Below, one piece after another: positions 16,674-60,644 of a stretch of DNA of 64,000 nucleotides; the first letter of the stretch is position 1; every line of letters starts with the position of its first letter. Source of the DNA: Candidatus Poribacteria bacterium (lineage in GTDB: Bacteria; Poribacteria; WGA-4E; WGA-3G); contig OZ242349.1 in NCBI GenBank assembly GCA_965208635.1, positions 2,049,769-2,113,768 on the forward strand, in the 5' to 3' direction. The position numbers were made by a program, and so were the translations under genes. A model generated the notes under the pieces. That model was given only the letters and a program-made list of their open reading frames with translations. It searched no databases and was not told where the DNA came from.

Positions 16674-16981
16674 CAAAGGACTCCGATGCAAAAATTGTTA
16701 TGACTTATGATACCTGTAGCATAGCATATTCCAGCAAATCGTTCAAGAAAAAATTGATACCGAGACTGCACACAACAGTAAAGAAAGTGTATTATTTTTA
16801 GTTATATTCAGGCTTTGTAACTTTTAATTTGAAAAATAATTATAATCCACCTATTATAACCAATACGGGTTGATAGTGTGTAGCAGAAGTGAAATAACCC
16901 GCGCCAGTAGCACAGAAGATTTAAACACGAGTCAAAAAACGCTACAAATTTGATTAATAAATTAATAAGGAGTATTTTTTG

Positions 16982-24964: not shown

Positions 24965-25191
24965 GGTGATCCTAAATTTCAGAGCTTTCAGAGTAAATAC
25001 GAAAGAACAATACGTCAAAAAATGGGCGAAACCTCACGTCAGACGTGGCTTTGTGTGGTTTTGGAATAAATTGGCACTCGGAACTACTCTGAAATTAACG
25101 AAGCATTCGCGATGCCTCAAGTTTCAGAGCGATCATCCCTCTTATTGCTTATCGCTTTCAGCATTCTAATCGGTTACTTTCGCCCAAAATT

Positions 25192-28155
25192 CTAATCTGA
25201 TGCCTCCACTTTGGAAAGTAATTCAAGAAGATGGATTGAAGGAATTACCAAGTTACGATTCTGATGCTGAAGATGTTTCTCTATGAACATTTCCTTTGCT
25301 GCAACACCTATAACTTGTCCTTTCCTGTTCAGTACAGGACACCCGTTACATCCATCAGGAATCGGCGCGGTAATTTCAAAAAAATTCCTTTCATAAAGAC
25401 GACTGATAATACCTTGTGAAAACGTATCCGGGCTACTTGCGACGTAAATGGTATCACCTATTTGAACATCCTCGTTGCTGAGATACAGAGGTTGTACATC
25501 AGTATTCGACACCTTTAGTATCGCTAATTGATCGTCAATAGCAGCTATACCTTCAACTTCAATACAAGGAACTTCATAACTGTCTTTCCGCTGATCGTGG
25601 TACAGTGTCAATGAATCGTCTTTATAAATAATATTATCAATCTTCTGAATAATTGCATTAATCCAACTGGATGCGAATCTCCTGGAGTTGGTCCGTTTCC
25701 ATACGAACGAAGTATTGCTTTCCAGATCGTATAACTTGCCGAATCTTTTTCGCCTGAAGTATCCTGGGGGTGTTGCAAGAAAACGATGTGTAGCAATTAG
25801 ATTCTGTTTAACGAAAAAGCCATTACCGGAAGCATGGTTATATTCTCTGGTATATTCCATAATTCCCAATGTACTCCTGGGTGGGCGTGCTCCTTTTTCC
25901 ACCATTAGTACTATGCTATCCAATACGCGCCGGGCTATCTGCTTAGAAGTTTGTGGTGTTTTCGTAATATCCCATAGAAGAATTGTGCCATCATCACTCC
26001 CACTCGCGAGGGTGCGGCCATCAGGACTGAAGGCTACCCAACTAATATAACCAGTATGCCCTTTGAGAGTGGCCTTGTGGCGACCTGTCGTATTAAACCA
26101 AGTCGGATATATACGTGTATCGTCGTGAGATTGATGGAGGATTCTGTGCACATTCCACAAAGTTACATCCTTACTTCCTACAGCAAGGGCAGAACCATCA
26201 GGACTAAAGGCAACACTTGAAACACCGTCAAGTCTATTAAGGGACGCTTTACATTCTTCACTGACCACATCCCACAAATATACCTCTCCATCTCCCGAAC
26301 TTCTAGCTCCACTGGCGAGAGTCCGCCCATCAGGAGAAAACGCAATGCTAAAAACATATTCCTTCCCATGTCCCGCGAGTGTGGTTTTAAGTTCCCCATT
26401 GGTGGCATCCCACAGATACACCGTGCCATTTCCACTCCCGCCAGCGACAGTAAGACTATCAGGAGAAAACGCCACACTCAAGATAGTTTCATAATGTTCA
26501 GTGGTTAGCGTGGCTTTATTTTTGCAAGTAACGGCATCCCACAATTGAATTGTAGTGTCCTTTGCCAAATCATCTCTACTGCCGGTCGCGAGCGTTTTCC
26601 CATCAGGGGAATAGGCTAATACGAAGCCATCAATAGAATATTCTCGTAATGGTTCACTCGTTTGAACGCCTCTACGCCCTTCAAAAGTGGTAGCTCGAGG
26701 TTTCCCAGATTCCACATCCCAAAGCCGGATGGTACCATCTTCACTCGCACTCGCAAGGGTTTTTCCATCAGGGGAATAGGAGACAGCATCAGCAAACATT
26801 TTGAAGTCGTCTTTTATCCATCGTCCCAAAGGCACCTTGAACGTGCTTTGAAGGCACCCTGATCGCACATTCCAAATGCGAATTATCTTATCACCCACTT
26901 TGCCGTGTCCACTTCCACTAGCGATTGTACTGCCATCAGGATCGAATGATATGGAAGAAACAGATCTTGTATGCCCTGTGATCGTTTGCAAGTGTTCTCC
27001 AGTGACAGCGTTCCATAACCGGATAGTGCTGTCACCACCTATACCTGCAAATGCTCTGCTATCAGGGTTGAAAACAAGGCTATAAACTTCATCAGTATGT
27101 TCAGTGAGGGTTAACTTGTGCTCACCACTAACAGCATTCCACAATCTAATTTTCTTGTCTCGATCTGCAATAGCAAGTGTGCTGCTATCGGGACTGAAGG
27201 CAATAGCATCTGAATATCCTGTAAGTTCTGCCTTGAGTTGGTACGTGGCGGTATCCCACAGAAGAATTTTGTCATCCTTACTCGCACTGACAAAAGAAGC
27301 ACCATTGGGGGAGTATGCTACCGTAAAGACACTGTTTGTATGCTGCTCTGTGAGTGTTTCTTTATGTTCACCTGTGGCAGCATCCCATAATTGAACAGTA
27401 CCCGGCCATAGATCTCTATCAATATTGTTGTCCCAACCTCCAGTAGCGATTGTGTCTCCATCTGGACTGAATGCGATGGAATTGGCGCGAAAATCAGGAT
27501 TCTCAAGGGTAATGTGTTGACCAGTTTCTATATTCCACAATCGAATCATTTCAACATTTTTCATAGGCCCCCCGAAAAAACCACCACTATCTGCACTTGC
27601 GAGCGTTTGACCATCAGGACTGAATACCATCAATTTATATCCACCTGTATGTCCTTTGAGTGTCGCTTTGCGTTTACCGGTAACAACGTCCCACAATCGT
27701 ATCGTTCCGTCTCCACGTGGGTCTACATTTCCACTGGCGAGGATACTACCATCGGGACTGAATTCTACACAGGTTACACGTTCCTCATGCTCACCAAGCG
27801 TTACTTTGTGTTCTCCAGTGTTTGGATCCCACAAGCAAACCGTACCAGCATACAAGGAACCATCGGGGGAATACGCAATCAACTCCGGCCAAACTGCCCC
27901 ACCGCTAGCTAAGGTATGACCATCGGGGGAGTACGCAATCAACTCCGGTCCCTTTATATGTCCTGTGAGAAGATTCAATTCTTTGCCCGTATGGGCATTG
28001 TATATCCATATCCCAATGGAACTACCGACTGCAAGTTGCGTACCATCTGGAGAATACCTGATTTGACCTATTATTCCCTTCCCAAGGCGTGATCTGGGCT
28101 CTTCGGAGACATACCATTCAGCATTGTTTTGGGTAGGGTCATTTGGAAAAAACAT
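25192..28155 (-). CDS. WD40-repeat protein (16 SPDG...LW(D/N) units) fused to a C-terminal chymotrypsin/S1-like domain with a non-canonical active-site motif
   Basis: 16 repeats of the (F/Y)SPDG..LASG....I.LWD type. The C-terminal ~240 aa carry SGNGFFV..NLIATHRF (His), DDQLAILKV (Asp) and DGCNGCPVLN in place of GNSGGPLLN. Confidence 0.8.
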   Translation of the reverse strand: MFFPNDPTQNNAEWYVSEEPRSRLGKGIIGQIRYSPDGTQLAVGSSIGIWIYNAHTGKELNLLTGHIKGPELIAYSPDGHTLASGGAVWPELIAYSPDGSLYAGTVCLWDPNTGEHKVTLGEHEERVTCVEFSPDGSILASGNVDPRGDGTIRLWDVVTGKRKATLKGHTGGYKLMVFSPDGQTLASADSGGFFGGPMKNVEMIRLWNIETGQHITLENPDFRANSIAFSPDGDTIATGGWDNNIDRDLWPGTVQLWDAATGEHKETLTEQHTNSVFTVAYSPNGASFVSASKDDKILLWDTATYQLKAELTGYSDAIAFSPDSSTLAIADRDKKIRLWNAVSGEHKLTLTEHTDEVYSLVFNPDSRAFAGIGGDSTIRLWNAVTGEHLQTITGHTRSVSSISFDPDGSTIASGSGHGKVGDKIIRIWNVRSGCLQSTFKVPLGRWIKDDFKMFADAVSYSPDGKTLASASEDGTIRLWDVESGKPRATTFEGRRGVQTSEPLREYSIDGFVLAYSPDGKTLATGSRDDLAKDTTIQLWDAVTCKNKATLTTEHYETILSVAFSPDSLTVAGGSGNGTVYLWDATNGELKTTLAGHGKEYVFSIAFSPDGRTLASGARSSGDGEVYLWDVVSEECKASLNRLDGVSSVAFSPDGSALAVGSKDVTLWNVHRILHQSHDDTRIYPTWFNTTGRHKATLKGHTGYISWVAFSPDGRTLASGSDDGTILLWDITKTPQTSKQIARRVLDSIVLMVEKGARPPRSTLGIMEYTREYNHASGNGFFVKQNLIATHRFLATPPGYFRRKRFGKLYDLESNTSFVWKRTNSRRFASSWINAIIQKIDNIIYKDDSLTLYHDQRKDSYEVPCIEVEGIAAIDDQLAILKVSNTDVQPLYLSNEDVQIGDTIYVASSPDTFSQGIISRLYERNFFEITAPIPDGCNGCPVLNRKGQVIGVAAKEMFIEKHLQHQNRNLVIPSIHLLELLSKVEASD

Positions 28156-28252: not shown

Positions 28253-30457
28253 TTAACTTGCAAATAGGTTGGGTGATGTTTGGCTTGGAGGTTGGAGCAA
28301 GTTAATTGGTATAGATGGTGTTTGGGGTTGCTCTGCCTGTTGTAGAGACATTGCGGTGAAGGTTTCAAGTGAGTAAAGTTCCATTCCACTTTGAAATTCA
28401 GACGGATTTTTCTCTACAGGTGAGGTGTAAATCTGTTCCTTTTTCTCTCTTAATATTGCAGCAATATCTTTTGGCAATTTAACGCCAGCCTTTTTCTCAA
28501 AACCCTCCACGCTTTGATAAGATTTACTAAAAACGGTAGGAATATCTATGCCTTCGTTTGCTGCACTTGTTAAGCTAATTCTGGCTTTCTCCCATTCTTG
28601 CTGGTGCAACCGAGCCATTGCGCGATTGTAATAGGCTGGTGCATAATCGGGATCTAACCTTAGTGCTTTTGTATAGTCTTTAAGGGCTTGATTAAACTCG
28701 TCATTGTTGAAGTAAGCCAGTCCACGATTGTGATAAAATATTGCCTCATCTCGACTCAGGTCTATCGCCTTACTGTAATTTTCAATAGCCTCGTCAAAAT
28801 CGCCGCCGTTACTATAAACGTTGCCAAGGTTATTATAAGCTGCAGCATTGTCTCGTTCCAATTCCAGTGCTTTTTTTAAGTCATCAATTGCTAGACTTAC
28901 CTCGCCAATGTCCCCATAGGCAACACCGCGATTGACATAAGCTCTGACATGCTTGGGATTAAGTTCTATCGTCTCAGTATAGTCCCTTATAGCCAAATCA
29001 AGTTTTCCCACGCTATTGTAACCAATGGCGCGATTGAAATAGATATTCGCATGGTTGAGCCCCAGTTCTATCGCCTTTGTACAGTCATCTAAGGCCTTGT
29101 CAACTTTGCCAATAATACCGTAAGCGGCCCCGCGACTAGCATAGGCTTCTACAGCCTGGGGATCAATTTGTACAACTGTCGTGTAATCGGCAATGGCTGA
29201 GTCAAGATCGCCTTTGAACAAGTAAACATTACCACGATTATGATAAGGTGCGGCAAACTTTGGATCAATTTGTATTGCCATTGTATAATCAGCGATAGCT
29301 TTGTCAAAGCTGCCTTTGTTACTATAAGCAATACCGCGATTGATATAAGATGGAATGTGGTTAGATTGGACCCGAAGCACTTCCGTATAATCCACAATAG
29401 CCCTATCAAATTCACTTCTTGCGCTGTAGGCGATGCCGCGATTAAAATAGCATTCGACGTGACGTGGATTTAGTTCTATCACTTTCGTATAGTCCGTTAT
29501 GGCTCTGTCAAAATCGCCATTGCTACTATAAGCATTGCCTCGTTCATAATACGCGTTGAGATAATCGGGTTGTAGTTTTACTGCTTTTGTGTAACTTTCA
29601 ATTGCCGAATTCACTTCGCCTTTGTTGTCGAAAGCCATACCCAGAATCAGATGCGCATCCGCAGCGTTGGAATTGCGTTCCAACGCTTTTTCACAGTCTG
29701 TAATAGCGGAGTCAAAATCCTCCTTAAGACTATAAGCAGTTGCGCGGGTGATATAAGGATGAGCAGCATTCGGATTGAGTTCTATCACCTTTTGGAAGTC
29801 TGCGATAGCGGAGTCAAAATCCCTTTTAAGTAAGTGAATGTGGCCTCGCATAATATAGACTGGTGGGTAATTCGGTTTCAGTTTTATCGCCCTGCTATAG
29901 TCTGCAATAGCTTTATCACCCTCACCTTTGCTGCTATAAATATTACCACGAATAGCGTAGACTTCAGCAAAATCAGGCTTGATTCGTATCGCTTTGCTAT
30001 AGTCCATAATCGCGAAGTCAAGTTCACTTTTGTCTCCGTAAGCGTTGCCTCGAATGAGATAGGCCTCAGCAACATCAGGATTAAGCTGTATCGCCTTATC
30101 ACAATCTTCAATGGCACGATCGAACTCTTTCTTGCCAACATAAGCATGAGCGCGGTGGTAATAGGCCTCAGCGTAGTCCGGTTGGTATTGGATCGCCTTG
30201 GTGAAGTCTTCAATTGCCTTATCAATTTCACCATTAGCCCCATACGCCATACCGCGCCCGTGATAAGCTCTCGCGGGTTGGCGAGTCCAGAAAACCGCTT
30301 GGGTATAATCGTCAATCGCGAGATCAAACTTGCCCATCTTATGGTAAACTTCGCCTCGGTAAACATAGGGCATAACAAAACCGGGGCTCAGTTCAATAGC
30401 ATTGCTAAAATGCTTGACAGCTTCTTCATAGTGTGCCATCTTCGCTTTGTTAGCCAT
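28253..30457 (-). CDS. tetratricopeptide-repeat protein (about 19 consecutive 34-aa TPR units) with a non-repeat C-terminal tail
   Basis: Highly regular AI.DY..AI.L.P....AY..RG.AY units span nearly the whole ORF. The ATG at 30457 overlaps the upstream FRG gene by 8 nt, with a GGAGA SD. Confidence 0.85.
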   Translation of the reverse strand: MANKAKMAHYEEAVKHFSNAIELSPGFVMPYVYRGEVYHKMGKFDLAIDDYTQAVFWTRQPARAYHGRGMAYGANGEIDKAIEDFTKAIQYQPDYAEAYYHRAHAYVGKKEFDRAIEDCDKAIQLNPDVAEAYLIRGNAYGDKSELDFAIMDYSKAIRIKPDFAEVYAIRGNIYSSKGEGDKAIADYSRAIKLKPNYPPVYIMRGHIHLLKRDFDSAIADFQKVIELNPNAAHPYITRATAYSLKEDFDSAITDCEKALERNSNAADAHLILGMAFDNKGEVNSAIESYTKAVKLQPDYLNAYYERGNAYSSNGDFDRAITDYTKVIELNPRHVECYFNRGIAYSARSEFDRAIVDYTEVLRVQSNHIPSYINRGIAYSNKGSFDKAIADYTMAIQIDPKFAAPYHNRGNVYLFKGDLDSAIADYTTVVQIDPQAVEAYASRGAAYGIIGKVDKALDDCTKAIELGLNHANIYFNRAIGYNSVGKLDLAIRDYTETIELNPKHVRAYVNRGVAYGDIGEVSLAIDDLKKALELERDNAAAYNNLGNVYSNGGDFDEAIENYSKAIDLSRDEAIFYHNRGLAYFNNDEFNQALKDYTKALRLDPDYAPAYYNRAMARLHQQEWEKARISLTSAANEGIDIPTVFSKSYQSVEGFEKKAGVKLPKDIAAILREKKEQIYTSPVEKNPSEFQSGMELYSLETFTAMSLQQAEQPQTPSIPINLLQPPSQTSPNLFAS

Positions 30458-31379: not shown

Positions 31380-32891
31380 ATGCCTGAAACCAGACCTAAT
31401 ATCCTACTTATTACGAGCGATCAGCAACATTGGAATACCTTGGGCTGCCTCAACGCTGAAATTCAGACCCCGCACTTAGATGCATTGGCACAGCAAGGCA
31501 CACTTTTCAATAGAGCCTACTGCCCGAACCCGACCTGCACCCCTACACGCGCCTCTATTATTACCGGAAAATATCCGAGCCAACACGGTGCCTGGTCCCT
31601 CGGCACGAAACTCTCTGAAGATGAGCATACCGTCGGTGAAGATTTCACGGATGCGGGGTATCGCACTGCCCTCGTCGGCAAGGCGCATTTTCAACCGCTC
31701 CACGGTACTGAGGAATTCCCGTCTCTCGAATCCTATCCGATCCTCCAAGATTTGGACTTTTGGCGCAGTTTCAATGAACCGTTTTACGGGTTTGAACACG
31801 TTGAACTCGCACGCAACCACGCCGACGAAGCGCACGTTGGACAACACTACGCTATCTGGATGGAGGAAAACGGCTGCCCCAATTGGCGCGACTACTTCGC
31901 GCCGCCGACAGGGAACGCTCGCGGGCAGTATCGGAAATGGCACATTCCAGAAGAATATCATTACGATACATGGATTGCGGAACGCACCAACGCACTCATG
32001 GAAACATATCAGCAGAATGGCGAAAACTTTTTCCTTTGGGCGAGCTTCTTCGATCCACATCCAAAATATCTCGTGCCAGAGCCGTGGGATACGATGTACG
32101 ACCCAACGGCATTGACAGTGCCTTCCGTAACCGAGGGAGAACATGATAACAATCCACCGCATTTTCAGCTAACACAACAAGAAAAGCCTGACTTCTCGGC
32201 TTGGCGTGAAAGTGGAAAGGGTGCCCACGGCTTCAACTCACATTTACGCGATCAAGATGAACTCGCCAAAGACATCGCTGTCTATTACGGGATGGTGACG
32301 CTGATGGACAAATACATCGGGAAAATCTTGGCGAAACTCGATGAACTCGGACTTGCAGAGAACACACTGGTTGTCTTCACATCCGACCACGGACACTTCT
32401 ACGGACAGCACGGACTTGTGGCGAAGGGTGCATTTCACTATGAAGACGTGATCCGAGTGCCGTTTATCGTGCGGCATCCGGGGATCGTACCTGCGGGAAG
32501 ACACTCTGACGCGTTGCAAACATTGGTAGATTTAGCACCTACATTCCTCAGTGCCGCCGGTATCGACGTACCACTACCGATGACGGGTGTCGATCAGATG
32601 CCGGTCTGGTCGGGAGAAGCAGAACAGGCGCGCGACCATATCATCGTTGAAAACCACCATGAACCGACAACAGTACACGTTAAAACCTATGTTAACGATC
32701 GTTATAAACTCACTGTCTACTACAACCGAGAGTATGGGGAATTGTTTGATTTGCAAGAGGATCCGGGAGAGGTCAAGAACTTGTGGGATTCTGCCGAACA
32801 CTCAGCACTAAAGGCGGATCTGGTGATGAAGTTATTGTTCGCAGAGATGGGGAAGGAACCGTTGTGGATGCCGCGAACTTCGGGGGCGTAG
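31380..32891 (+). CDS. Cys-type sulfatase
   Basis: NILLITSDQQ, CTPTRASIITGKY (CxPxR) and FTSDHGH. Confidence 0.9.
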   Translation: MPETRPNILLITSDQQHWNTLGCLNAEIQTPHLDALAQQGTLFNRAYCPNPTCTPTRASIITGKYPSQHGAWSLGTKLSEDEHTVGEDFTDAGYRTALVGKAHFQPLHGTEEFPSLESYPILQDLDFWRSFNEPFYGFEHVELARNHADEAHVGQHYAIWMEENGCPNWRDYFAPPTGNARGQYRKWHIPEEYHYDTWIAERTNALMETYQQNGENFFLWASFFDPHPKYLVPEPWDTMYDPTALTVPSVTEGEHDNNPPHFQLTQQEKPDFSAWRESGKGAHGFNSHLRDQDELAKDIAVYYGMVTLMDKYIGKILAKLDELGLAENTLVVFTSDHGHFYGQHGLVAKGAFHYEDVIRVPFIVRHPGIVPAGRHSDALQTLVDLAPTFLSAAGIDVPLPMTGVDQMPVWSGEAEQARDHIIVENHHEPTTVHVKTYVNDRYKLTVYYNREYGELFDLQEDPGEVKNLWDSAEHSALKADLVMKLLFAEMGKEPLWMPRTSGA

Positions 32892-40158: not shown

Positions 40159-40845
40159 CTAAGAAGAAGAACCCACTTGGAATAAAGTATCAACACCGAT
40201 TCTTAATAGCCAAATGATGACTGCCGTAAGACATGCTTTTGTTCTACTGACTTCCGCGAGTGTAGAAATCGCCACAGTTAAAACAAAGATAATCCATATA
40301 CCCAAGATATCTATATAACTGAAAAAAAACAGAAGATACAGATTTTCGACAGATGGCACCAACATGTGGACCGCGGGAATAATTCTCATATCAACAACTG
40401 TTTCAATATCCTCAAGCCGTTTAAAAACTGGAAGAAATGCGATATTGATAAAAAATGTCACTGGATTAATCAAGATAGTGTGCCACCAAGCCGCGAAGAT
40501 GTGTTTAAATTTGAGTGCCTCATTTACCTTGAAAACTCGCGATGCCACGGTGAGTGCAACACTAAACACAACAGCACAGAGAATCCCAAGGATAATCCCA
40601 CCCATCGCAACAAACACCATAGATGCCGCTTTGGTAGATCCAAACAACTCAATACCGGCGAAACTACCCACATATTGTGGATTAATGAACTTCTGCGTAA
40701 ACGGGAAAACTATCCATGCCAATACTACGACGAGAAAACAGAAGACACCGAACGCAACTCCCCATTTTGGTTTAGATTGCAGCCGCGTAAATGTAGCTTT
40801 CGGGTTCGCAACGAGATCAATGAGATTTTGCCAACTCTCTCTCAT
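40159..40845 (-). CDS. Yip1-domain family membrane protein
   Basis: MRESWQNLIDLVANPKATF parallels the N-terminus of the upstream paralog, with 5 TM helices. The track start at 40902 probably over-extends. Confidence 0.55.
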   Translation of the reverse strand: MRESWQNLIDLVANPKATFTRLQSKPKWGVAFGVFCFLVVVLAWIVFPFTQKFINPQYVGSFAGIELFGSTKAASMVFVAMGGIILGILCAVVFSVALTVASRVFKVNEALKFKHIFAAWWHTILINPVTFFINIAFLPVFKRLEDIETVVDMRIIPAVHMLVPSVENLYLLFFFSYIDILGIWIIFVLTVAISTLAEVSRTKACLTAVIIWLLRIGVDTLFQVGSSS

Positions 40846-40879
40846 AATTCCGAACGAGTAGCCATAAGACCTACCTCCC

Positions 40880-41563
40880 TTAGGAGGCAAAGACAACCTC
40901 AATCAGAATACTGATTCCCCACAGGATGACCGCTGCCACACGAGCCCTATTTTTTTCTAAATCGGCAAGCACCGCGATTGCTATTGCTATCACTGCGATT
41001 AGCCATAGACTCAGCGGATTAATGTGACTGAGGAACACCAGTAACTTAGCGTTTGCCCCAGAATCAACCAGCATGTGTAGCCCCGGAATCATTTTGAAGT
41101 CCGCCGTGCTTTTGACATCGCCTGCGTCTCTAAAAACGAGCAAAAGCGCGGTGTTGACGAGCTGTATGAGGCAATTAATCAGCCAAATATGGATAACAGC
41201 GGCGTAGATATGCTTAAATCTTAACGTATCGTTCTTCACCAGAAACCGGGCCGCTAATCGGAGGAGCGCACTGCCAATGATAAATCCCAAAATCGCAAAG
41301 ATAGGAAAGAGAAAGATACCAATGTTCTTGAAAATCTGAGCGATATTTTCCGCAGCTTCAAGTTGTTCTGCCTGTAAATCGTTTTCCTGAAGTTGTACCT
41401 CTATGAGTGCTTCAGTGTATGGCATGACAGCCCAGCCGATAAGAACAGAGAACAGATAGAACACAATAAACGCTATTCCTGACCTCGGTTGCAATTTGAG
41501 CTGCGAAAACGCCGCACTCGGCTCAGCGATGATGTTACCAATGTTCTGAAAACTCTCTTTCAT
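40880..41563 (-). CDS. Yip1-domain family membrane protein (paralog)
   Basis: MKESFQNIGNIIAEPSAAF, 5 TM helices, and a shared LRFKHIYAA/LKFKHIFAA motif. Confidence 0.55.
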   Translation of the reverse strand: MKESFQNIGNIIAEPSAAFSQLKLQPRSGIAFIVFYLFSVLIGWAVMPYTEALIEVQLQENDLQAEQLEAAENIAQIFKNIGIFLFPIFAILGFIIGSALLRLAARFLVKNDTLRFKHIYAAVIHIWLINCLIQLVNTALLLVFRDAGDVKSTADFKMIPGLHMLVDSGANAKLLVFLSHINPLSLWLIAVIAIAIAVLADLEKNRARVAAVILWGISILIEVVFAS

Positions 41564-41713: not shown

Positions 41714-42880
41714 CTACTGCTTCGTTTTTTCTTTCTCAAGCTGTGACTTCTGCCAACCGTAATCAACGCCACCCTCGTAGAATTTGTCCGGATGCTCCAC
41801 TGCCCAAATTTGTTTATGGATAATCCAGTTCTGCGGGTCTAATGCCAAAGCCTTCCGCCATTCTGCCATTGCTTCCTCTTTTTTACCGACCTCCAATAAG
41901 ACCAAGCCAAGTTGAAAACGCGCAGAGGCTTCGGTGGTAACCTGAGCGTTTACCGCATTCAAGAGTTTCACATCACGAAGCAATTTCACATTATAATCGG
42001 GGTCCGATACCCACTTTTCAAGCATCGTGAGGGTTTTCTGATCCGCAACATTGATGTTGAAAGGTCCTTTTACCAACCGTCCTGCCTCATCAATCATAAC
42101 GCCATAGGGAATAGCTTTGAGGTCATAGCGGGTACCGAATGTATTTTGTGAATCAACGAGCGTGACAAAATCGGCATCTGCCGCATCATGCCAAGGACGC
42201 ACGACGGATGCGCCTTGTGCATCAAGTGCAATGGAGACAAGGTTTAACTTCTCCCAGTGTTTAGCATAAAACGCCTGCCAGCCTGGCAGCTGTTCACGAC
42301 ACCCTCACCACGAACCCCAAACATAGAGTAGTGTCTTTTTCCCTCTGAAATCTTGTAAGTGTCTGGGTGTCCCTTCAAGGTCGGGAAGTGTGAATTCGGG
42401 TGCGAGATGCATAGGTTGAATAATCTCTAATCGGTTTACTGATACTTCGTAGATTTCAAAGCCGAAGGGTTCTGTAACCAGCACCGGTTGGACATAAGTT
42501 ACGCCATCAATATCAACAACACCCTTGTGCGAGCCTATAGAGGAGCCCTGTGGGGCAATATCTTGGAATTCGAGAGGTACACACAATTCTGATGCCCCAC
42601 CACAGAGAACCGCCATCTTCGCACCTTCTGGGTACTCGACTTTTAAGCCGAGCTGTTTGGCGAAAGGTTCCAAAGGCACGAACCATTTATCCTCTCTGAG
42701 AATAGGAGGTGCGGCAAATGTGACACGTTGTGCCTCTATCGTAATCTGCAGATCCTCTCTACTCATATTCTCCTCTTCGGCTAACCCTACCCGTAAGTCC
42801 ACTGCACAGAACAGAGCCGTTGTCAACATTATGAACCCCACTATACGCCCCAGTCTGCGAACTGATATTGCGAGAATCAT
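41714..42880 (-). CDS. exported thioredoxin-fold (TlpA/ResA-like redoxin) protein with N-terminal copper-amine-oxidase-N1-like domain and C-terminal TPR, read through an in-frame UGA (42305..42307) at the active-site Cys position; putative selenoprotein
   Basis: Track ORFs 42305..42880 and 41714..42202 share a frame, and the 34 codons between them contain no stop. Read-through gives APEFTLPDLEGTPRHLQDFRGKKTLLYVWGSW-U-GCREQLPGWQAFYAKH..., where TlpA/ResA proteins have FWASWCGPCR. Confidence 0.75.
42275..42289 (-). promoter_or_regulatory. bacterial SECIS-like hairpin after UGA 42307..42305
   Basis: On the minus strand, cugcca-ggc-uggcag forms a 6-bp stem. The loop starts 21 nt after the UGA and its first base is G. 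Confidence 0.45.
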
Positions 42881-43245
42881 TGTGTACCCTTCTCCCTGTG
42901 TTCTGAATCATAAATCAGGAATTTAATAATCTTTTCCGTGGTCTTGAGATTAAGCCCCGAACCCGGTTTCCGCATCATCTTATAGACATACTTTCGCCAT
43001 TCCTCTGCGTTAAAAGTAGAATTAATCGGGCGTGCAACGGTATGGCACCGGCTACATTTACGGGTAAAAAGTTCGTAAGCCTCCTGCATCTCAGGTGAAT
43101 AGGTGGTAACATCAATAAAGTTAGGTCCTTTATCTGCTGGATAGGTTTTAGGGACCGCACGCGGGGCGCGCAAGGCGTAGATCATCCCAATCCCAACGAG
43201 AAAAATAACACCCAGGACAGCAATCCAAACAATAGGTTGTTTCAT
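42877..43245 (-). CDS. membrane-anchored small protein with a single CxxCH (c-type heme-binding-like) motif
   Basis: N-terminal TM helix and a CSRCH motif. Its stop overlaps the start of the downstream gene (ATGA, 42877..42880). Confidence 0.5.
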   Translation of the reverse strand: MKQPIVWIAVLGVIFLVGIGMIYALRAPRAVPKTYPADKGPNFIDVTTYSPEMQEAYELFTRKCSRCHTVARPINSTFNAEEWRKYVYKMMRKPGSGLNLKTTEKIIKFLIYDSEHREKGTQ

Positions 43246-43282: not shown

Positions 43283-43651
43283 TTAGGGCATCGCGTTAAT
43301 ACTTACATCACCGCCGTTTATAACATCCAATATCACGCGACTTCCATAAAGCAAAGACATTCCGACCAAGGGACCACCGTCTGTTTGCAGAGTGGACACG
43401 TTGTGTTCTTCGCCATGCCACAGGACGGACAAGAGGTACTTCTCTAAAACTACCTCAGTTCCATCCCCAAGAATTACCGCTTGATTATCAATCTGTCGGA
43501 GTTTGAGCAGGTTGATTAAATCGCCTGGCAAAGCCAAATAGCCAGAAAAGCCTGTATCAACGACAGCCTCAATTTTTTCACGCCTATTTAATCCTATGAC
43601 AACCAATTCGATGACCACTTCCAGATCGGTTGTAACTTTTCCTATAATCAT
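43283..43651 (-). CDS. retropepsin-like (clan AA) aspartic protease, single domain
   Basis: VVDTGFSGYLALP (D-T-G catalytic motif) in a ~120-aa protein, as in the AF_0612-type bacterial/archaeal family. Confidence 0.7.
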   Translation of the reverse strand: MIIGKVTTDLEVVIELVVIGLNRREKIEAVVDTGFSGYLALPGDLINLLKLRQIDNQAVILGDGTEVVLEKYLLSVLWHGEEHNVSTLQTDGGPLVGMSLLYGSRVILDVINGGDVSINAMP

Positions 43652-43923
43652 TATTTTTGTGCTGAAAATTTAAAGCCAATTCGATGGGCAGCTCGATACC
43701 CGATGCGTAAACTATAAATAAGAGCTTCAGGTCTCTTAGCAAGGAGACGCATAGACGGAGATAAATCGTCGGTGTCAACTTCATAATCCCCTGTTTCGAT
43801 GTCAACAGACAAAAACTTGCCTTTATGCTGTGGTTCAACCTTTTCACGTATTTGCTGTTGATATATCTCTTTGCCGCGAGCAGCAATAACTTCGGGAGTA
43901 TAATTAGGACGTGGCATAGTCAA
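43651..43923 (-). CDS. small partner protein of the retropepsin-like protease (function unknown)
   Basis: 90-aa ORF whose stop overlaps the protease start by 1 nt. Confidence 0.5.
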   Translation of the reverse strand: MTMPRPNYTPEVIAARGKEIYQQQIREKVEPQHKGKFLSVDIETGDYEVDTDDLSPSMRLLAKRPEALIYSLRIGYRAAHRIGFKFSAQK

Positions 43924-54795: not shown

Positions 54796-56262
54796 CTACT
54801 TAACCTCGCTCATCAGGAACGAGACCTGCGCCATAATGAAGAACAGTAGATTAAATAGCACCAATAAACCGACTTGGGATAATACACTGCGGTAGGAAAT
54901 CTGCTCCGAAAATACCGGCACAGCGTCAGGATCCACAGATTTTTGGGACAATCCCTCTTTCACAGGATAGATATGGAGACTCTCTGGATCACTCTGATCT
55001 TCCGCCTTGATGAAGTCTATGAACGTTTGTCGATAGCGGCGTGCCTGTTTGACAAAATTCATATAACTGACGATACCTGTATTCGCAAGTCCTTCCATCG
55101 CATATTGAAAAGTCGCTATTGGAGAGATTTGGGTGAGATCGCGTGCGAGTTGCACCTGCCTAAACTGCTGATCGATGTGTTCATCAATACTTTTTGTTTC
55201 TATTCCTTTCTGCGTTGTAAAGTATGTTGCCCACCGTCGCGTCGCCGATGGATTTTCAGTGGAGGGTGCTTGGTTCAACTTACTCGATGGTTCACCAGAT
55301 GCGCCCCAAGGCTGAAATTGATCGCTAATTTGCTCTAATTGTGCCATTCTCCCTAATGAGACCTCGTCAACCGATGGAATTGGGTTCAGGTTGCCGACAA
55401 AGATCCCGAGTAAGTTCGGAAAGACGAACGCCAGGAAAACCCAAGTGAGTAAGAGCCATACTAAACTCGTAATCGGGTTTGAAACGCGACTTGAAAAAAA
55501 GAATCCAAGAAAAATAAAGATAGAAACGAGCAGCCCAAAAAGTCCGACCATCCCCAGAATTCTGAGAGAGGTCCCCGAATCAAAGGAAAGACTCCCCGAA
55601 AGTTGGATAACCAATAGATTCATCAGAATGCCAATTATGAGTGGCACCATGAGCGTCAAAAACGCACCGAGGTATTTCCCCAACAACACCTGACTGCGCG
55701 AGACCGTGTTCGACATTATCAGGCTTAGCGTGCCACGCGACCGTTCCCCAGCGATGGCATCGAAAGTGAATAAAATCGCGAAAAAACTCATTAGCATACC
55801 GATGAAAACCCAATCTATTTTGATACGACGGGTTGCATTTCCTTCATCAAAACTATTCAACGGATACCTTAACGTCCAAGGTCCCTTCCACGCATAAGCT
55901 TCAAATTGACCAGATCTACCACTGCGACTGACAGTGCCGTATTCCTGCATGATGACAGAACGCGGTATCACTTCATCAGCACCATTAGCGCAGAATTTCA
56001 GAGGACTCGGACGCTTCGGCATATCCCCAGGGCCCATTACCGCCAATTCTCCTAAACCCTGAGCGGCATACGTTTCAACATGAGATAACTTTTTTTCTAT
56101 TTGCCTATTGTAAGCATTGACCTGTGTTACGTATCCATCATCCCCATAACCGTATATCAACGCGTTCGCTATCATCAAAAGAGGTAGCAGAATTATCATC
56201 AACGCAAACCGGAGCGTTGTGAGATTGTGATGAATCTCTTTCTTCGCAATCTGCAAAATCAT
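54796..56262 (-). CDS. ABC-2 type transporter permease-like membrane protein (copy 1 of type B)
   Basis: N-terminal TM, a large external loop, a 5-TM ABC-2 core (GERSRGTLSLIMSNTVSR), and a C-terminal soluble region plus TM. Paralog of 59186..60631. Confidence 0.65.
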   Translation of the reverse strand: MILQIAKKEIHHNLTTLRFALMIILLPLLMIANALIYGYGDDGYVTQVNAYNRQIEKKLSHVETYAAQGLGELAVMGPGDMPKRPSPLKFCANGADEVIPRSVIMQEYGTVSRSGRSGQFEAYAWKGPWTLRYPLNSFDEGNATRRIKIDWVFIGMLMSFFAILFTFDAIAGERSRGTLSLIMSNTVSRSQVLLGKYLGAFLTLMVPLIIGILMNLLVIQLSGSLSFDSGTSLRILGMVGLFGLLVSIFIFLGFFFSSRVSNPITSLVWLLLTWVFLAFVFPNLLGIFVGNLNPIPSVDEVSLGRMAQLEQISDQFQPWGASGEPSSKLNQAPSTENPSATRRWATYFTTQKGIETKSIDEHIDQQFRQVQLARDLTQISPIATFQYAMEGLANTGIVSYMNFVKQARRYRQTFIDFIKAEDQSDPESLHIYPVKEGLSQKSVDPDAVPVFSEQISYRSVLSQVGLLVLFNLLFFIMAQVSFLMSEVK

Positions 56263-56275
56263 CTGTTTCTCCTTT

Positions 56276-57817
56276 TCAACTCATCTCATATCTCAGAAAA
56301 GACACATAAGCCAACATAAATAGAACAATATTCCACGCCAACAAGATCAGAATATCCACCGAAGCGCGTGAGAAACTTTCTGAGAGGGAGAGCCGCTGCT
56401 GTCGATAAACCGGCAGATCCGCTAAATCCGCAGTACCCTGGTCATCGGAAAACCATGCTCGCGAAGAAAATGCTTTTTTATCTTTCAAATATTCAACGAC
56501 CTCACGCTTATAGGCTCTGGAACTCTCAAGAAAAGCACTATAGCTTTCGCTGTCGGTCCCCGCTATTGCACCGACAGCGAAGTGATACACGTCTGCAAAC
56601 GAGATACGGGAGAGAAGGTCTGCGAACTTCACGTTCCGCTCTCGATCATCCGCAGGTTTTCTGAGAATTTCTTCCGCCCTATCCGTATACGCAATCCGAA
56701 GTGGTTCCTGATAACTTAAAAATTCCTGGAGAACAGAAACGTCGGCGTACTTCATATTTCCAATGCGATAACTCTCCGTAACAAACCATTCCGCAGACAT
56801 AGAGAAAGTGCCAGCAGATCCACGACGTTTTCTACCTTTTTCATCGCGCCGCCAAGAGACCGTCTCCGTTGGACTCTCGTAGCCCCTCTTTTTTAGATAA
56901 TCGTCGCGTTCCTTTCTGAAATCGTTCCAGAGTTGAATAGTCTGTTGAAAAACTTTTTTTTCCGAGTCGGGTTTATGTGGCGAAAATTTCGTCACCGCAA
57001 ATGTCGCCACGTTCGCATGAACACTTGTCAGAACTACCCAAAGAAACATTGAAAGAATCAATGTGGTTGCTGCCTCTTTCGTCCAGACAGACAAGAGCAG
57101 TCCCAAAAGATACCACGTTGACACGTACAACAGCGAAACAGCGAATATCAGGACGATATGGGCAATATCGCTTCCATCAAAGCCAGTAACTGGAGAAGAG
57201 ACAGCGATTAAAAGTGCTACGATTAGACTCACCACAACAATCGGGAACAGCGATAACATACCACCGAGGTATTTCCCCAAAACGACTGTGTCCCTCGGTA
57301 TCGAATTGGATAACACGAGCTTCAGTGTGCCATCCTCTCTTTCGCCCGAAATTGTGTTGTAAGCAAACAGAATCGCTAACGCACTGAGTACGATCTTAAA
57401 GATGAAAACCACATCAACGGAGAGAAACATCGCGAGAAAAGGGTTGTCTGCTCCCATCTTTTGAGTCGTTTCGCCCCAACCGGGGGAACGACTATCCCGT
57501 ATCCAAATCGGTTTATCAGGCTCAACAACGACCGTATTTACACCAGAGGTTTCCATCCCGATGTCAAAAATGCCGAGCGGATTCGGTTTTCTGTGCACCT
57601 TTGCACTAATATCGGTGTAGAGTTTCCAATTTTTGGGTTCTGCTTGGGATTCTCGGATAGCCGTGTTATATCCGACCAACCGCTTTTCGTGATCATCCAC
57701 CTGAACGAAAACGGCGACAGCCGTTGAAAGCAGACACACGATAAACCCGATCATGAATCGGGAGGTTAGCACATTTGAGACGAATTCTCGTTGGATAACA
57801 AGCCAAAGCGTATGCAT
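56276..57817 (-). CDS. ABC-2 type transporter permease-like membrane protein (copy 1 of type A)
   Basis: Same topology with the motif GEREDGTLKLVLSN. Paralog of 60645..62168. Confidence 0.65.
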   Translation of the reverse strand: MHTLWLVIQREFVSNVLTSRFMIGFIVCLLSTAVAVFVQVDDHEKRLVGYNTAIRESQAEPKNWKLYTDISAKVHRKPNPLGIFDIGMETSGVNTVVVEPDKPIWIRDSRSPGWGETTQKMGADNPFLAMFLSVDVVFIFKIVLSALAILFAYNTISGEREDGTLKLVLSNSIPRDTVVLGKYLGGMLSLFPIVVVSLIVALLIAVSSPVTGFDGSDIAHIVLIFAVSLLYVSTWYLLGLLLSVWTKEAATTLILSMFLWVVLTSVHANVATFAVTKFSPHKPDSEKKVFQQTIQLWNDFRKERDDYLKKRGYESPTETVSWRRDEKGRKRRGSAGTFSMSAEWFVTESYRIGNMKYADVSVLQEFLSYQEPLRIAYTDRAEEILRKPADDRERNVKFADLLSRISFADVYHFAVGAIAGTDSESYSAFLESSRAYKREVVEYLKDKKAFSSRAWFSDDQGTADLADLPVYRQQRLSLSESFSRASVDILILLAWNIVLFMLAYVSFLRYEMS

Positions 57818-57923
57818 TTAATACACCTCATTCGCAGAATGACATCTGCAGCGGTTTCCTAAAGACAGCGCATCATGAAATATTGCCATTCTGATACTTG
57901 ATTGGCGATAGCTGGAAAGTTAT

Positions 57924-58781
57924 CTATCTGCCTTTAGAATCAGTAGATTTGACTTCATACCTCTTTAATTCAAGGGCTTTAACCGTGGTTGAAGCCTTAA
58001 CTTGAGAGTGCGTTATAATTGTCAGAAGGATATCCTCCGCTTCTTGGTGAAATTTGACAATTCCGACGTTGGGGGCTACCCACAGCGTTGCAACGGATTC
58101 GCCGGACGGATTTGGCACCTCACTCGGAGGGGACACTTCCACTTCTGTCTTTGTCTGATATACAATTTTCAAACAATCTTCAAAAGTGCCGGCGGACGTT
58201 TCAACACTTTCCGTGCCTAGGACTTTGCCTGTTTCAACAATAGTGAACTCAGATATGATTTCTTCAGGATCTTGCGGCGGATCAGGTGTCATCGTGACTT
58301 TGGCTTTTATCTGTGCTGCGTCCCACTCTTCGTTGAAGGTAACAGACCTTGGAAGCACATAGAACGAGTCTGCCGCCTCCACTTCGATCTCGTAAAGGAG
58401 ATCGAAATTCGCCTCATGTATTTTGCCGAAGGCCTCCACCTCTTTGGTAAGACGCGCCTTGACCGCTTTCTCTACATCATCACCGACCCAGAACGTAACC
58501 CGCTCTTCACCAATTTGATAGAGATGCGGGTGGATGTGATAGTCATAATCTGCCCAATCCTCTAAAGCAGGTTCATAACTGAAGGCATGATACGTCTCTC
58601 CGTCGATATCTTTGTTTTTAATGACACGACGTGTTAATTCGTTTCCATCTTGATCTTCGTAAACCCAGTAGCTTCCCAGCGCGTGTGGGAAATAGGTGTC
58701 TGCCTCTTCTTTCCCGACCAGCGTTACACTAAAGCCGAAAATGAGTAACAAACTCAAAACGACACGAAATATTTTCAACAT
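57924..58781 (-). CDS. hypothetical exported protein
   Basis: N-terminal signal-like segment. It sits between the two permease pairs. No motif recognised. Confidence 0.5.
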   Translation of the reverse strand: MLKIFRVVLSLLLIFGFSVTLVGKEEADTYFPHALGSYWVYEDQDGNELTRRVIKNKDIDGETYHAFSYEPALEDWADYDYHIHPHLYQIGEERVTFWVGDDVEKAVKARLTKEVEAFGKIHEANFDLLYEIEVEAADSFYVLPRSVTFNEEWDAAQIKAKVTMTPDPPQDPEEIISEFTIVETGKVLGTESVETSAGTFEDCLKIVYQTKTEVEVSPPSEVPNPSGESVATLWVAPNVGIVKFHQEAEDILLTIITHSQVKASTTVKALELKRYEVKSTDSKGR

Positions 58782-59015
58782 GATAGATTCCTCGAATTTT
58801 TCGTTTTTTTAATCTAACCTATAGGAGCGATCTTCAAGCGTGTTTCCTGAAATGAATTGCTCCAATCCTCTCCGCGCATTTTGAGGTTGTTGTTACTACA
58901 AACGAGTTTCAAAAAAGTTGCATTTTATTCTCAAATTTTCAGAGAGGTTCGGTTAGAAGGAGAAATTTTTCTTTCACTATCAATTTGACTTAAATAGGAT
59001 TATTGATAGGCAATG

Positions 59016-59057
59016 AATCGCCCTACTACAAACGGGGCTGCTTGTAGTAGGGCGATT
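59016..59057. repeat. perfect 16-bp inverted repeat (hairpin) with 10-nt loop
   Basis: aatcgccctactacaa (59016..59031) / ttgtagtagggcgatt (59042..59057). No flanking T-tract on either strand. Confidence 0.8.
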
Positions 59058-59185
59058 TATCGTAAGTTCGGAAATTACTACTCAATGAAATCTCACTAAC
59101 GAACGTCTCTCCATGTTTTTGGACTTTATGATAACCTGCGTCTAACCGTACCGAAAACACACAAACCCGCTAAGTTGTAAACGTA

Positions 59186-60631
59186 TCACTTAACCTCGCT
59201 CATTAAAAACGAGACCTGCGCCATAATGAAGAAGAGTAGGTTAAACAACACCAATAAACCGACTTGAGATAACACACTGCGATAGGAAATCTGCTCCGAA
59301 AACACGGGAACAGCATTCGGATCTACAGGTTTCTGAGACAATCCCTCTTTCACAGGATAGATATGGAGGCTCTCTGGATCACTCTGGTCTTCCGTTTGAA
59401 CGAAGTCTATAAACGTCTGCCGATAGCGGCGTGCCTGCTTGACAAAATTCATATAACCGACGATACTCGTGTTCGCAAGTCCTTCCATTGCATATTGAAA
59501 AGTCGCTATTGGAGAAATTTGGGTGAGATCACGGGCGAGTTGTACCTGTTGAAGTTGCTGGTCGATGTGTCCATCGGCGATCTGGGTCTCCGTGTCACTG
59601 ATTTCGGTGAAGTATGTCGCCCAGAGGCGCGCCACGGCTGGTCTTTCAATGGCAGGTGATTTTCTTAACTTCTTTTTCGGCTCCCGTTGCCATTGGTCCT
59701 CGATTTGGTCCAATTGTGCCCGTCTTCGCATGGAAACCTCATCAACAGATGGAATCGGATTCAGATTACCGACAAAGATCCCGAGCAGACTCGGAAACAC
59801 AAACGCCAAAAAAACCCAAGTGAGTAAGAGCCACACTAAACTTGTAATGGCATTTGAGACGCGACTTGAGAAAAAAAGCCCGAGAAAAATAAAAATAGAA
59901 ACGAGCAACGCAAACAATCCAACCATCCCCAAAATGCACAGCCAATCACTTCCGTCAAATGGAATACCTCCAATGAGGAGAACGACTAAGAGGTTCATGA
60001 GAACACCCATAACAAGCGGCAGAAAGACTGTTACAAATGCACCGAGATATTTACCTAACAATACCTGTCCGCGCGAGACCGTGTTCGACATTATCAGACT
60101 TAGCGTCCCGCGCATCCGTTCCCCAGCGATAGTGTCAAATGTGAACAAGATCGCAAAGAAACTCATCAGGACACCAATGAAGACCCAGTTGATTTTGACG
60201 CGTCCCGTTGAATTGCTGCCAGAACTGACAACCTCATACTCCAATCTCAATGGATGTCGCCACGCGTAATCCTCATCCTCAATACCGCTACTTCGACTAA
60301 TATTGTAATCGCTTTTCAATTTAATAGAACGCGACACGACTTCATTAACACCACCGGCACAGAATATCAGACGGCTCGGACGTTTCGGGATATCTCCAGG
60401 TCCCCTCAGTGCTAACTCCGCTAAACTTACGCTCGCCTGCTCTGTAATATGATCCCGATTCTGTGTCACCTGTTGGTTATAGGCATTAATCTGCGTGGTA
60501 TAACCATTATCGCCAAGGCTATAGATTAGCGCATTCGCCACAAACAAAACGGGTAGTAGGATTATCATCAACGCAAACCGGAGTGTCGTGAGATTGTGAT
60601 GAATTTCTTTTTTTGCAATGTGTAATATCAT
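59186..60631 (-). CDS. ABC-2 type transporter permease-like membrane protein (copy 2 of type B)
   Basis: Paralog of 54796..56262. The last 40 aa are identical (PVFSEQISYRSVLSQVGLLVLFNLLFFIMAQVSFLMSEVK). Confidence 0.65.
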   Translation of the reverse strand: MILHIAKKEIHHNLTTLRFALMIILLPVLFVANALIYSLGDNGYTTQINAYNQQVTQNRDHITEQASVSLAELALRGPGDIPKRPSRLIFCAGGVNEVVSRSIKLKSDYNISRSSGIEDEDYAWRHPLRLEYEVVSSGSNSTGRVKINWVFIGVLMSFFAILFTFDTIAGERMRGTLSLIMSNTVSRGQVLLGKYLGAFVTVFLPLVMGVLMNLLVVLLIGGIPFDGSDWLCILGMVGLFALLVSIFIFLGLFFSSRVSNAITSLVWLLLTWVFLAFVFPSLLGIFVGNLNPIPSVDEVSMRRRAQLDQIEDQWQREPKKKLRKSPAIERPAVARLWATYFTEISDTETQIADGHIDQQLQQVQLARDLTQISPIATFQYAMEGLANTSIVGYMNFVKQARRYRQTFIDFVQTEDQSDPESLHIYPVKEGLSQKPVDPNAVPVFSEQISYRSVLSQVGLLVLFNLLFFIMAQVSFLMSEVK

Positions 60632-60644
60632 TTTCCACCCCTTT

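Follow-up and report, generated by a model that had tools for sequence, protein, structure and literature searches.

A UGC-type redoxin gene of Candidatus Poribacteria with an in-frame TGA that is almost certainly read as selenocysteine

An in-frame TGA in a redoxin gene

The DNA analyzed here, called the window, is a stretch of 64,000 nucleotides from a Candidatus Poribacteria bacterium (contig OZ242349.1 of assembly GCA_965208635.1), and the subject is a redoxin gene on its minus strand (Table 1). Two open reading frames (ORFs), 42305..42880 and 41714..42202, lie in one frame, and the sole stop codon between them is the TGA at 42305..42307; the 34 codons on its 3' side are all open. This arrangement, from which the original prediction started, is read directly from the DNA. 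Conceptual read-through gives a protein of 388 residues, ...RGKKTLLYVWGSW-U-GCREQLPGWQAFYAKH..., with the motif context ...KKTLLYVWGSW-U-GCREQLPGWQAFYAKH, i.e., the window reads VWGSW-U-GCR around the TGA. The codon is almost certainly read as selenocysteine (Sec, U), in a redox protein resembling TlpA and ResA.

The TGA had been assigned to the first active-site Cys of a redoxin of this type, and the homologues agree: a protein search returned 21 of them, and every full-length one has W[AG]SW-C-G-C-R..LP.WQ in the same columns, with a Cys in the column of the TGA.

Table 1. Features of the redoxin gene and of its surroundings in the window.
Feature	Position	Strand	Remarks
Predicted selenoprotein gene, complete	41714..42880	minus	388 codons including Sec; ATG at 42880; TAG stop 41714..41716
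TGA, predicted Sec codon (U192), first residue of U-G-C	42305..42307	minus	aligned with the first Cys of WASW-C-G-C-R homologues
U-G-C redox motif	42299..42307	minus	codons TGA GGG TGT
Upper stem-loop CUGCCA-GGC-UGGCAG	42275..42289	minus	-8.5 kcal/mol; codons of Leu-Pro-Gly-Trp-Gln
Extended stem-loop, lower stem CGUGAA/UUUUAUG	42265..42298	minus	positions 10-43 from the U of UGA; minimum free energy (MFE) -11.8 kcal/mol
N-terminal leader, basic stretch then hydrophobic IVGFIMLTTALFCAV	42779..42880	minus	read by eye from the sequence
Cu_amine_oxidN1-like domain, residues 48-144	42449..42739	minus	Pfam 33.3 bits, cutoff 24.2
Cys pair in the N-domain, C93 and C100	42602..42604, 42581..42583	minus	in ...VLCGGASELCVPLEF
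TlpA/ResA-like thioredoxin-fold (redoxin) domain, residues 159-271	42068..42406	minus	AhpC-TSA E 2.9e-15; Redoxin E 1.4e-12
C-terminal helical/TPR-like repeat, residues 318-355	41777..41929	minus	TPR_2 E 9e-6, 25.9 bits, cutoff 27
Family motif NWIIHKQIWAVEHPDKFY, residues 351-368	within 41777..41929	minus	kept in every subfamily, whether Sec or Cys
CxxCH protein, 122 aa, N-terminal transmembrane helix	42877..43245	minus	C64-H68 at 43042..43056; weak haem-binding Pfam match, E 0.0017
Two tandem overlapping Yip1-domain membrane protein genes	40159..41563	minus	just downstream of the predicted selenoprotein gene
Tandem two-domain PrxQ/BCP-type peroxiredoxin with signal peptide	2244..3245	plus	Pfam AhpC-TSA twice, E 5e-70
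In-frame TGAs at both peroxidatic Cys	2478..2480, 2928..2930	plus	FYPKDFTGG-U-TTELC, FYPRDFGRG-U-TAQVC

Conservation of the TGA and selection downstream of it

One genome per bacterial species was scanned with the pattern TGG-GSN-NNN-TGG-TGA-GGN-TGY-CGN-N6-YT, which matched at least 120 loci. At least 117 of these are genuine genes of the family: they encode WASW-U-GCRxDLPxWQ, and the frame is open over a long distance both before and after the TGA. Among the matches listed, Sec forms occur in metagenome-assembled genomes (MAGs) of Acidobacteriota, Chloroflexota/Dehalococcoidia, Actinomycetota, Alpha- and Deltaproteobacteria, Rokubacteria, Binatia, Hydrogenedentota and Candidatus Poribacteria. 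These matches supplied a comparison set of 111 distinct Sec genes, and the same pattern with TGY for TGA gave 76 distinct genuine genes of the Cys form.

The closest relatives among the matches listed are from Poribacteria (L038, on the complete chromosome OZ244889.1; L044, of the MAG PYIY01; L085; and L090); the metagenome contig L001 is also close. Downstream of the TGA, the window protein shares 72-83% identity with those of the four Poribacteria loci, and the TGA and the 34 codons following it are kept in all five Poribacteria-type loci. When the window is compared with the four MAG orthologues, dN/dS (nonsynonymous to synonymous substitution rates) is 0.05-0.10 downstream of the TGA and 0.17-0.23 upstream of it, with dS above 1. 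Over the 34 codons that separate the TGA from the earliest possible restart, the proportion of nonsynonymous differences (pN) is 0.06-0.12, against 0.60-0.70 for synonymous ones (pS). The reading frame 3' of the TGA is under strong purifying selection. This selection goes far beyond chance, and so does the recurrence of this TGA within this motif in at least 117 further genomes.

P0001, the database protein nearest to that of the window, is an artefact of the noisy long-read contig L001 (ENA contig ctg492510l). At L001:10440-10500, one nucleotide (nt) is inserted just after TGG-TGA-GGG, and a further frameshift lies upstream; the gene caller passed the TGA in the wrong frame. The transketolase gene on this contig is also broken, into three pieces. 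Gene callers that stop at the UGA have also left many C-terminal fragments of 180-240 residues in the databases.

A SECIS-type hairpin downstream of the UGA

A hairpin of 15 nt starts 14-15 nt 3' of the TGA, and its loop begins 21 nt after the A of the UGA. The original prediction took it for an element of the selenocysteine insertion sequence (SECIS) type, and this holds. A published model of the bacterial element (bSECIS; PMC13188914) specifies a loop of 3-9 nt with G in its first two positions (pattern N1-G-[G/U]-N-N2), an upper stem of 4-16 bp, a distance from UGA to loop of 16-37 nt and an MFE of at most -7.5 kcal/mol. The window element agrees with it on all four counts: a stem of 6 bp closing a loop of 3 nt (alternatively 5 bp and 5 nt), the loop A-GGC-U, a spacing of 21 nt and an MFE of -8.5 kcal/mol (-11.8 in the extended form). 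Like the elements described by this model, of which E. coli fdhF is the prototype, it is a stem-loop within the coding region, right after the UGA; its loop of 3-5 nt reads (A)GGC(U), and its upper stem has 6 bp. Compared with bSECIS elements in general, its sequence is specific to the family.

With positions numbered from the U of UGA, RNAalifold predicts a consensus hairpin 18-23/29-34 with a 5-nt loop in the 111 Sec genes, and none in the 76 Cys genes. The proportion of paired cells is 97% in the former and 73% in the latter, and all six pairs are formed in 92 of the 111 Sec genes, against 15 of the 76 Cys genes. The stem encodes the peptide LP[VG]WQ in 97 of the Sec genes, while the Cys genes vary here (LAGWQ, LGGWQ, LSGWR, LGALQ and others). 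The Leu codon is CUG or UUG, which pair with CAG/CAA, in 109/111 Sec and 45/76 Cys genes (CUC in 27 of the latter), and all Sec genes have G[GU]N as the loop codon, compared with about 41 of the Cys genes.

Two pairs covary in the Sec set: 18-34 (CG 60, UA 23, GC 8) and 19-33 (CG 96, UG 8, UA 7), where the last state joins a synonymous UUG to a synonymous CAA. This covariation was reached in none of 500 shuffles, a statistic inflated by the shared ancestry of the sequences, and slid registers all lie far lower. Since the synonymous changes UUG/CAA and GAU/A.. are compensatory within the Sec set, and since Sec and Cys genes differ as described, a constraint at the RNA level is indicated in spite of this inflation. 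The hairpin is conserved with covariation in the Sec forms and relaxed in the Cys forms.

The lower stem also forms in L044, with a change from G-U to G-C; it is less well supported than the upper hairpin. Applied to held-out loci, a covariance model of the family element recovered L003 at 37 bits and L001 at 35 bits, treating the extra base of L001 as an insertion, which is what a long-read error should look like. L002, which has neither Sec nor Cys, scores 14 bits only. As judged by its sequence and its comparison, the hairpin is a bona fide SECIS-type element and a putative SelB site.

Some observations weigh against this reading of the TGA and of the hairpin. No Rfam family was matched in the window. 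The folding energy of the hairpin has a z-score of only -0.6 against shuffled sequences; because the shuffles do not single it out, support for the element is comparative rather than thermodynamic. Its conservation is partly at the protein level, because a conserved peptide encodes the stem, and even the Cys forms keep 73% of the cells paired. Finally, neither selA, selB, selD nor tRNA-Sec was found within the window, and a Pfam scan of its 20 largest ORFs yielded no sel gene. Support for Sec decoding is indirect here: in a second gene of the window, two peroxidatic Cys codons are replaced by TGA (see below), Poribacteria are among the phyla listed with Sec-type group 4 hydrogenases, the genomes of which mostly carry selABCD, and SelA and SelB co-occur in most bins of sponge symbionts.

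Other explanations of the TGA

The UGA could be recoded with the help of the same hairpin and still yield a CGC redoxin, if Cys were inserted by a tRNA of the tRNA-ReC (selC*) type or if the codon were read through by near-cognate Trp or Cys decoding. Such tRNAs, reading a SECIS-linked UGA as Cys, have been reported in several Sec-using phyla, and Cys must be functional at this site, as many members of the family are plain CGC proteins; moreover, with no tRNA or transfer-messenger RNA gene in the window, the decoder is out of sight. This explanation is nevertheless improbable. The UGA state has been kept in at least 117 species of many phyla with a SECIS of SelB-type consensus, the standard signature of Sec, although the simple change from TGA to TGY was open and was taken by the Cys lineages. 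In the literature, tRNA-ReC is enriched mainly in UXXU contexts.

A true stop, resulting from a pseudogene, an assembly error or a pair of genes (one for an N-terminal protein of 191 aa, the other for a protein of 162 aa starting at the GTG at 42202), is more improbable still. Gene callers do split such genes, with C-terminal fragments starting just after the TGA (P0009, P0120, P0153, P0112), and the closest database relative is a frameshifted call from a noisy contig. However, a stop here would break off the thioredoxin fold halfway through the active-site motif, and the spacing equals that of the Cys homologues without any indel. The purifying selection 3' of the TGA, including the 34 codons before a restart, excludes all three variants. 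Homologues ending at this position had been named as a possible refutation; they do not end there, and the sequence beyond is conserved. The presence of the same TGA in at least 117 independent assemblies also argues that it is no assembly error.

UGA-sense codes exist in some uncultured bacterial lineages, and three in-frame TGAs occur in two genes of the window, but a genome-wide sense codon (Trp or Gly) is hardly credible and was rejected on stop-codon usage: TGA terminates 14 of the 43 long ORFs, on par with TAA and TAG, so the code is standard and the TGA at 42305..42307 must be recoded, and all three in-frame TGAs occupy catalytic Cys positions of redox proteins, each followed by a hairpin.

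A divergent subfamily of the UGC-containing redoxins

With the TGA read as Sec, the protein can be placed in a known family. Its top match is NCBIfam NF041054, 'ResA-like WAxxUGC motif-containing protein (WAxxUGC_long)', with 145.5 bits and E 2.4e-42, the best stretch being residues 160-285. Members from Actinomycetota/Dehalococcoidia score 530 (L005) and 504 bits (L011), the deltaproteobacterial L010 scores 329, and acidobacterial, alphaproteobacterial and Hydrogenedentota members reach 271-295. Poribacterial (L090, 160 bits) and short Chloroflexota forms remain at about 160 bits, mainly from the redoxin domain. The cutoff of the model is 300 bits; with 145 bits, the window protein is no equivalog of the curated model, which counts against its assignment to the family.

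An hhalign comparison of the Poribacteria-type alignment with that of the long type (88 Sec proteins) nevertheless gave a probability of 100% and E 6.7e-46 over 283 columns, covering window residues 63-371 and spanning both the N-domain Cys pair and the C-terminal NW..[KR]Q.W motif. The motif with UGA, homology over the full length and homologues with an aligned Cys were thus all found, the score below 300 bits being the exception. Being homologous from end to end in spite of that score, the Poribacterial proteins form a divergent subfamily of a known family. Very probably, 41714..42880 encodes one 388-residue, probably exported selenoprotein of this Poribacteria-typical subfamily of the UGC-containing TlpA-like (WAxxUGC) redoxins.

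In common with the rest of the family, the Poribacterial form has W-[AG]-x-W-U-G-C-R..L-P-x-W-Q, the TlpA/ResA fold, the SECIS hairpin, the Cys pair of the N-domain and a C-terminal helical region with NW..[KR]Q.W. Unlike the rest, it reads WGSW for WASW and carries a leader peptide; its N-domain is enlarged (Pfam Cu_amine_oxidN1), its linker is shorter, and its gene is coupled to one for a CxxCH protein.

The family was described by Zhang & Gladyshev (2008) as 'Prx-like (UGC-containing)' (pfam00578, motif UGC), with 46 Sec sequences and 855 Cys homologues in Global Ocean Sampling (GOS) data and a greater abundance in non-marine samples. The full-text literature gave no match for 'WAxxUGC'; the family is named 'UGC-containing' there. 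UGC, TlpA and Poribacteria had no text match in Peng et al. 2016. The new elements are modest: the architecture of the Poribacterial subfamily, the coupling to the CxxCH neighbour and the conserved N-domain Cys pair; otherwise, the family has been known since 2008.

The U-G-C motif

The motif is one residue shorter than CxxC, as had been predicted. This spacing, U-x-C or C-x-C, is kept in the 111 distinct Sec and 76 distinct Cys homologue genes. The redoxin domain matches PDB structures of Etrx and ResA with E 5e-13 to 1e-9. The closest solved structures as a group are those of ResA, TlpA, CcmG, StoA and Etrx (PDB 1st9, 1jfu, 2yp6, 4nmu; E 5e-13 to 3e-7), and alignment to structures of ResA, StoA and pneumococcal Etrx (2yp6, 4hqz, 4nmu) puts a one-residue gap at the Pro of C-G-P-C. 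No indel is needed to explain the spacing, because the gap is this Pro and the homologues share it; an indel restoring CxxC, considered as a candidate, is ruled out by the same homologues. The motif had also been called unusual, which is justified in relation to CxxC redoxins but not beyond them, as UGC defines an already described selenoprotein family.

The protein lacks the classical C-x-x-C and scores below the NCBIfam cutoffs for ResA and TlpA. A peroxiredoxin identity (AhpC/PrxQ) was considered and rejected, since W-G-S-W-U-G-C is of the TlpA type and not P-x-x-x-T/S-x-x-C; the Pfam match to AhpC-TSA is due to the shared fold only. With ResA, TlpA, CcmG, StoA and Etrx, the window protein has in common the fold, a nucleophile after W-x-x-W at the start of helix 1 and an extracytoplasmic setting. 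It differs from them by U-G-C instead of C-x-x-C, by Sec instead of Cys and by its extra N- and C-terminal domains.

When closed, the ring of the window protein would have 11 members, compared with 14 in CxxC enzymes, and the redox properties should therefore differ. CXC peptides studied in the Raines laboratory reportedly have potentials like that of protein disulfide isomerase (PDI), which they mimic. The CGC active site of MauE supports disulfide formation in E. coli (preprint 10.64898/2026.03.05.709764). MauE has a similar redox-active Cys-Gly-Cys pair, but it is a membrane protein of unrelated fold and contains no Sec. Both MauE and the CXC mimics are relevant here only in suggesting that a CxC/UxC ring is likely to be oxidising.

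SELENOF (Sep15), a thioredoxin-like selenoprotein of eukaryotes, has a CXU motif (PMC9304195). It and the window protein both have thioredoxin-like folds, a Cys/Sec pair two residues apart and a secretory or extracytoplasmic compartment. The order is reversed, however (C-G-U there, U-G-C here), and the SECIS of SELENOF lies in the 3' untranslated region. No sequence homology between the two was detected in this analysis, and the likeness is an analogy only.

Variants of the motif occur within the family. A U-M-C form, WATW-U-M-C-R with Met for Gly, is found in L003 (L003:99-152, plus strand) and in fragments beginning MCR..., and some relatives are apparently redox-dead, with E-L-C, S-G-S or D-V-S. 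The proteins and loci with such variants are L003, P0009, P0120, P0153, L002:470-520, P0105 and P0127; L002 also lacks the LPxWQ peptide and the hairpin.

Domain architecture

The predicted order of leader, Cu_amine_oxidN1-like domain, redoxin and TPR is borne out by Pfam, the TPR_2 match being slightly below its cutoff. The leader probably directs export or anchors the protein in the membrane; the orthologue L038 has a classical signal, ...SFAVGLQA/APV.

The two Cys of the N-domain lie in VLC93GGASELC100VPLEF, i.e., C93-x6-C100-VP. Of 98 complete Sec forms, 97 have the general pattern Cx(2-8)C[VILFA][PLA], usually as C-x3-C-[VI]-P. This family-wide pair (loci L004-L123) is possibly a second redox or metal site beside U-G-C.

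Genomic neighbourhood

The gene immediately upstream encodes the small CxxCH protein, and its TGA stop overlaps the ATG of the redoxin gene (ATGA). It is found directly upstream of the redoxin in L001, L038, L085 and L090, i.e., in all Poribacteria loci that reach far enough. The gene order transketolase (tkt) - CxxCH - redoxin - Yip1 - DUF4175 is kept in L001, L038, L044, L085 and L090. The Yip1 genes are followed by that of a 1168-aa DUF4175 protein, an order kept in the Poribacteria loci L044, L085 and L090.

Between the transketolase and CxxCH genes, two overlapping ORFs are located on the minus strand, 43283..43651 (122 aa) and 43651..43923 (90 aa). The former holds VVDTGFSGYLALP, which resembles the motif of retropepsin-type aspartic proteases. 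Neither has a Pfam match, and only the 90-aa ORF has a counterpart (L038). The pair (43283..43923) is absent from L085 and L090 and may be a small inserted module.

Further away, a tandem array of four paralogous genes for ABC-2 type permeases (481-513 aa) occupies 54796..62168 on the minus strand, and two of the permeases (54796..56262 and 59186..60631) also match DUF3526. Sulfatase genes are present at 15252..16691, 23552..25018 and 31380..32891, and very large proteins are encoded at 25192..28155 (WD40) and 28253..30457 (TPR). Such a content of sulfatases and giant WD40/TPR proteins is typical of Poribacteria.

A peroxiredoxin gene with two in-frame TGAs

The peroxiredoxin gene at 2244..3245 is the predicted second selenoprotein gene of the window, with two Sec residues. 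Each of its TGAs is followed by a hairpin, the apical loop of which starts 21-24 nt downstream. The original prediction noted that the spacing is the same as at the redoxin UGA. The loops do lie at 21-24 nt from their UGAs, but this is the generic geometry of SECIS elements and no sequence is shared. The suggestion that the three hairpins belong to one RNA family was rejected, as neither peroxiredoxin UGA is matched at E <=10 by the covariance model built from the family hairpin.

Putative mechanism and function

In the window protein, Sec is predicted at the nucleophile (N-terminal) position of a TlpA/ResA fold, with its partner Cys two residues on. SelB and tRNA-Sec would insert selenocysteine at the UGA, directed by the hairpin in the LPGWQ codons. 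Sec192 would then attack a substrate disulfide or another oxidised sulfur, and Cys194 could resolve the intermediate into a strained intramolecular selenenylsulfide, the 11-membered U-G-C ring. The protein is probably an extracytoplasmic thiol-disulfide oxidoreductase, the short U-x-C ring of which would shift it toward oxidase- or isomerase-like chemistry and away from a ResA-like reductase. As short rings are strained and CxC is linked to oxidising chemistry of the PDI or DsbB kind, such a role may fit better.

It is possible, though doubtful, that the Poribacterial enzyme works on or with the coupled CxxCH protein and that C93/C100 form a second redox site. The CxxCH protein might be a substrate, its apocytochrome thiols being reduced as by ResA or CcmG and the TPR-like region serving for binding; alternatively, it might be a redox partner. 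Clustering of flanking ORFs and a CxxCH scan over 187 loci revealed no neighbour kept across the family, only overlapping spurious ORFs being clustered. This speaks against a family-wide partnership with CxxCH proteins; the link is specific to Poribacteria and may be incidental.

A bolder proposal, and an unlikely one, sees in the Poribacterial subfamily no generic thiol-disulfide reductase but a dedicated extracytoplasmic selenoenzyme module, in which C93, C100, U192 and C194 would form an intramolecular relay or a metal/selenosulfide site; the module would exchange electrons with the translationally coupled, membrane-anchored monohaem CxxCH protein or mature it.

Implications for the family

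These findings do not overturn the current understanding of UGC redoxins. They illustrate that a bacterial selenoprotein gene, with its Sec codon and its SECIS, could be spotted from raw sequence. The family is widespread: at least 117 species-level genomes, from phyla of soil, groundwater and the sea, have a Sec form. The comparison of Sec and Cys genes provides a clean case of a SECIS stem that constrains a peptide, LP[GV]WQ, with the constraint relaxed after conversion to Cys. For annotation, the scores below the NF041054 cutoff mean that pipelines will split or truncate the Poribacterial genes; the orthologues from Poribacteria also fall below it, and a model of the subfamily would remedy this. 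If the selenoenzyme module proposed above were real, it would join the respiratory chain to periplasmic thiol chemistry by a Sec-dependent route not described before, and would offer a first functional handle on the whole UGC family.

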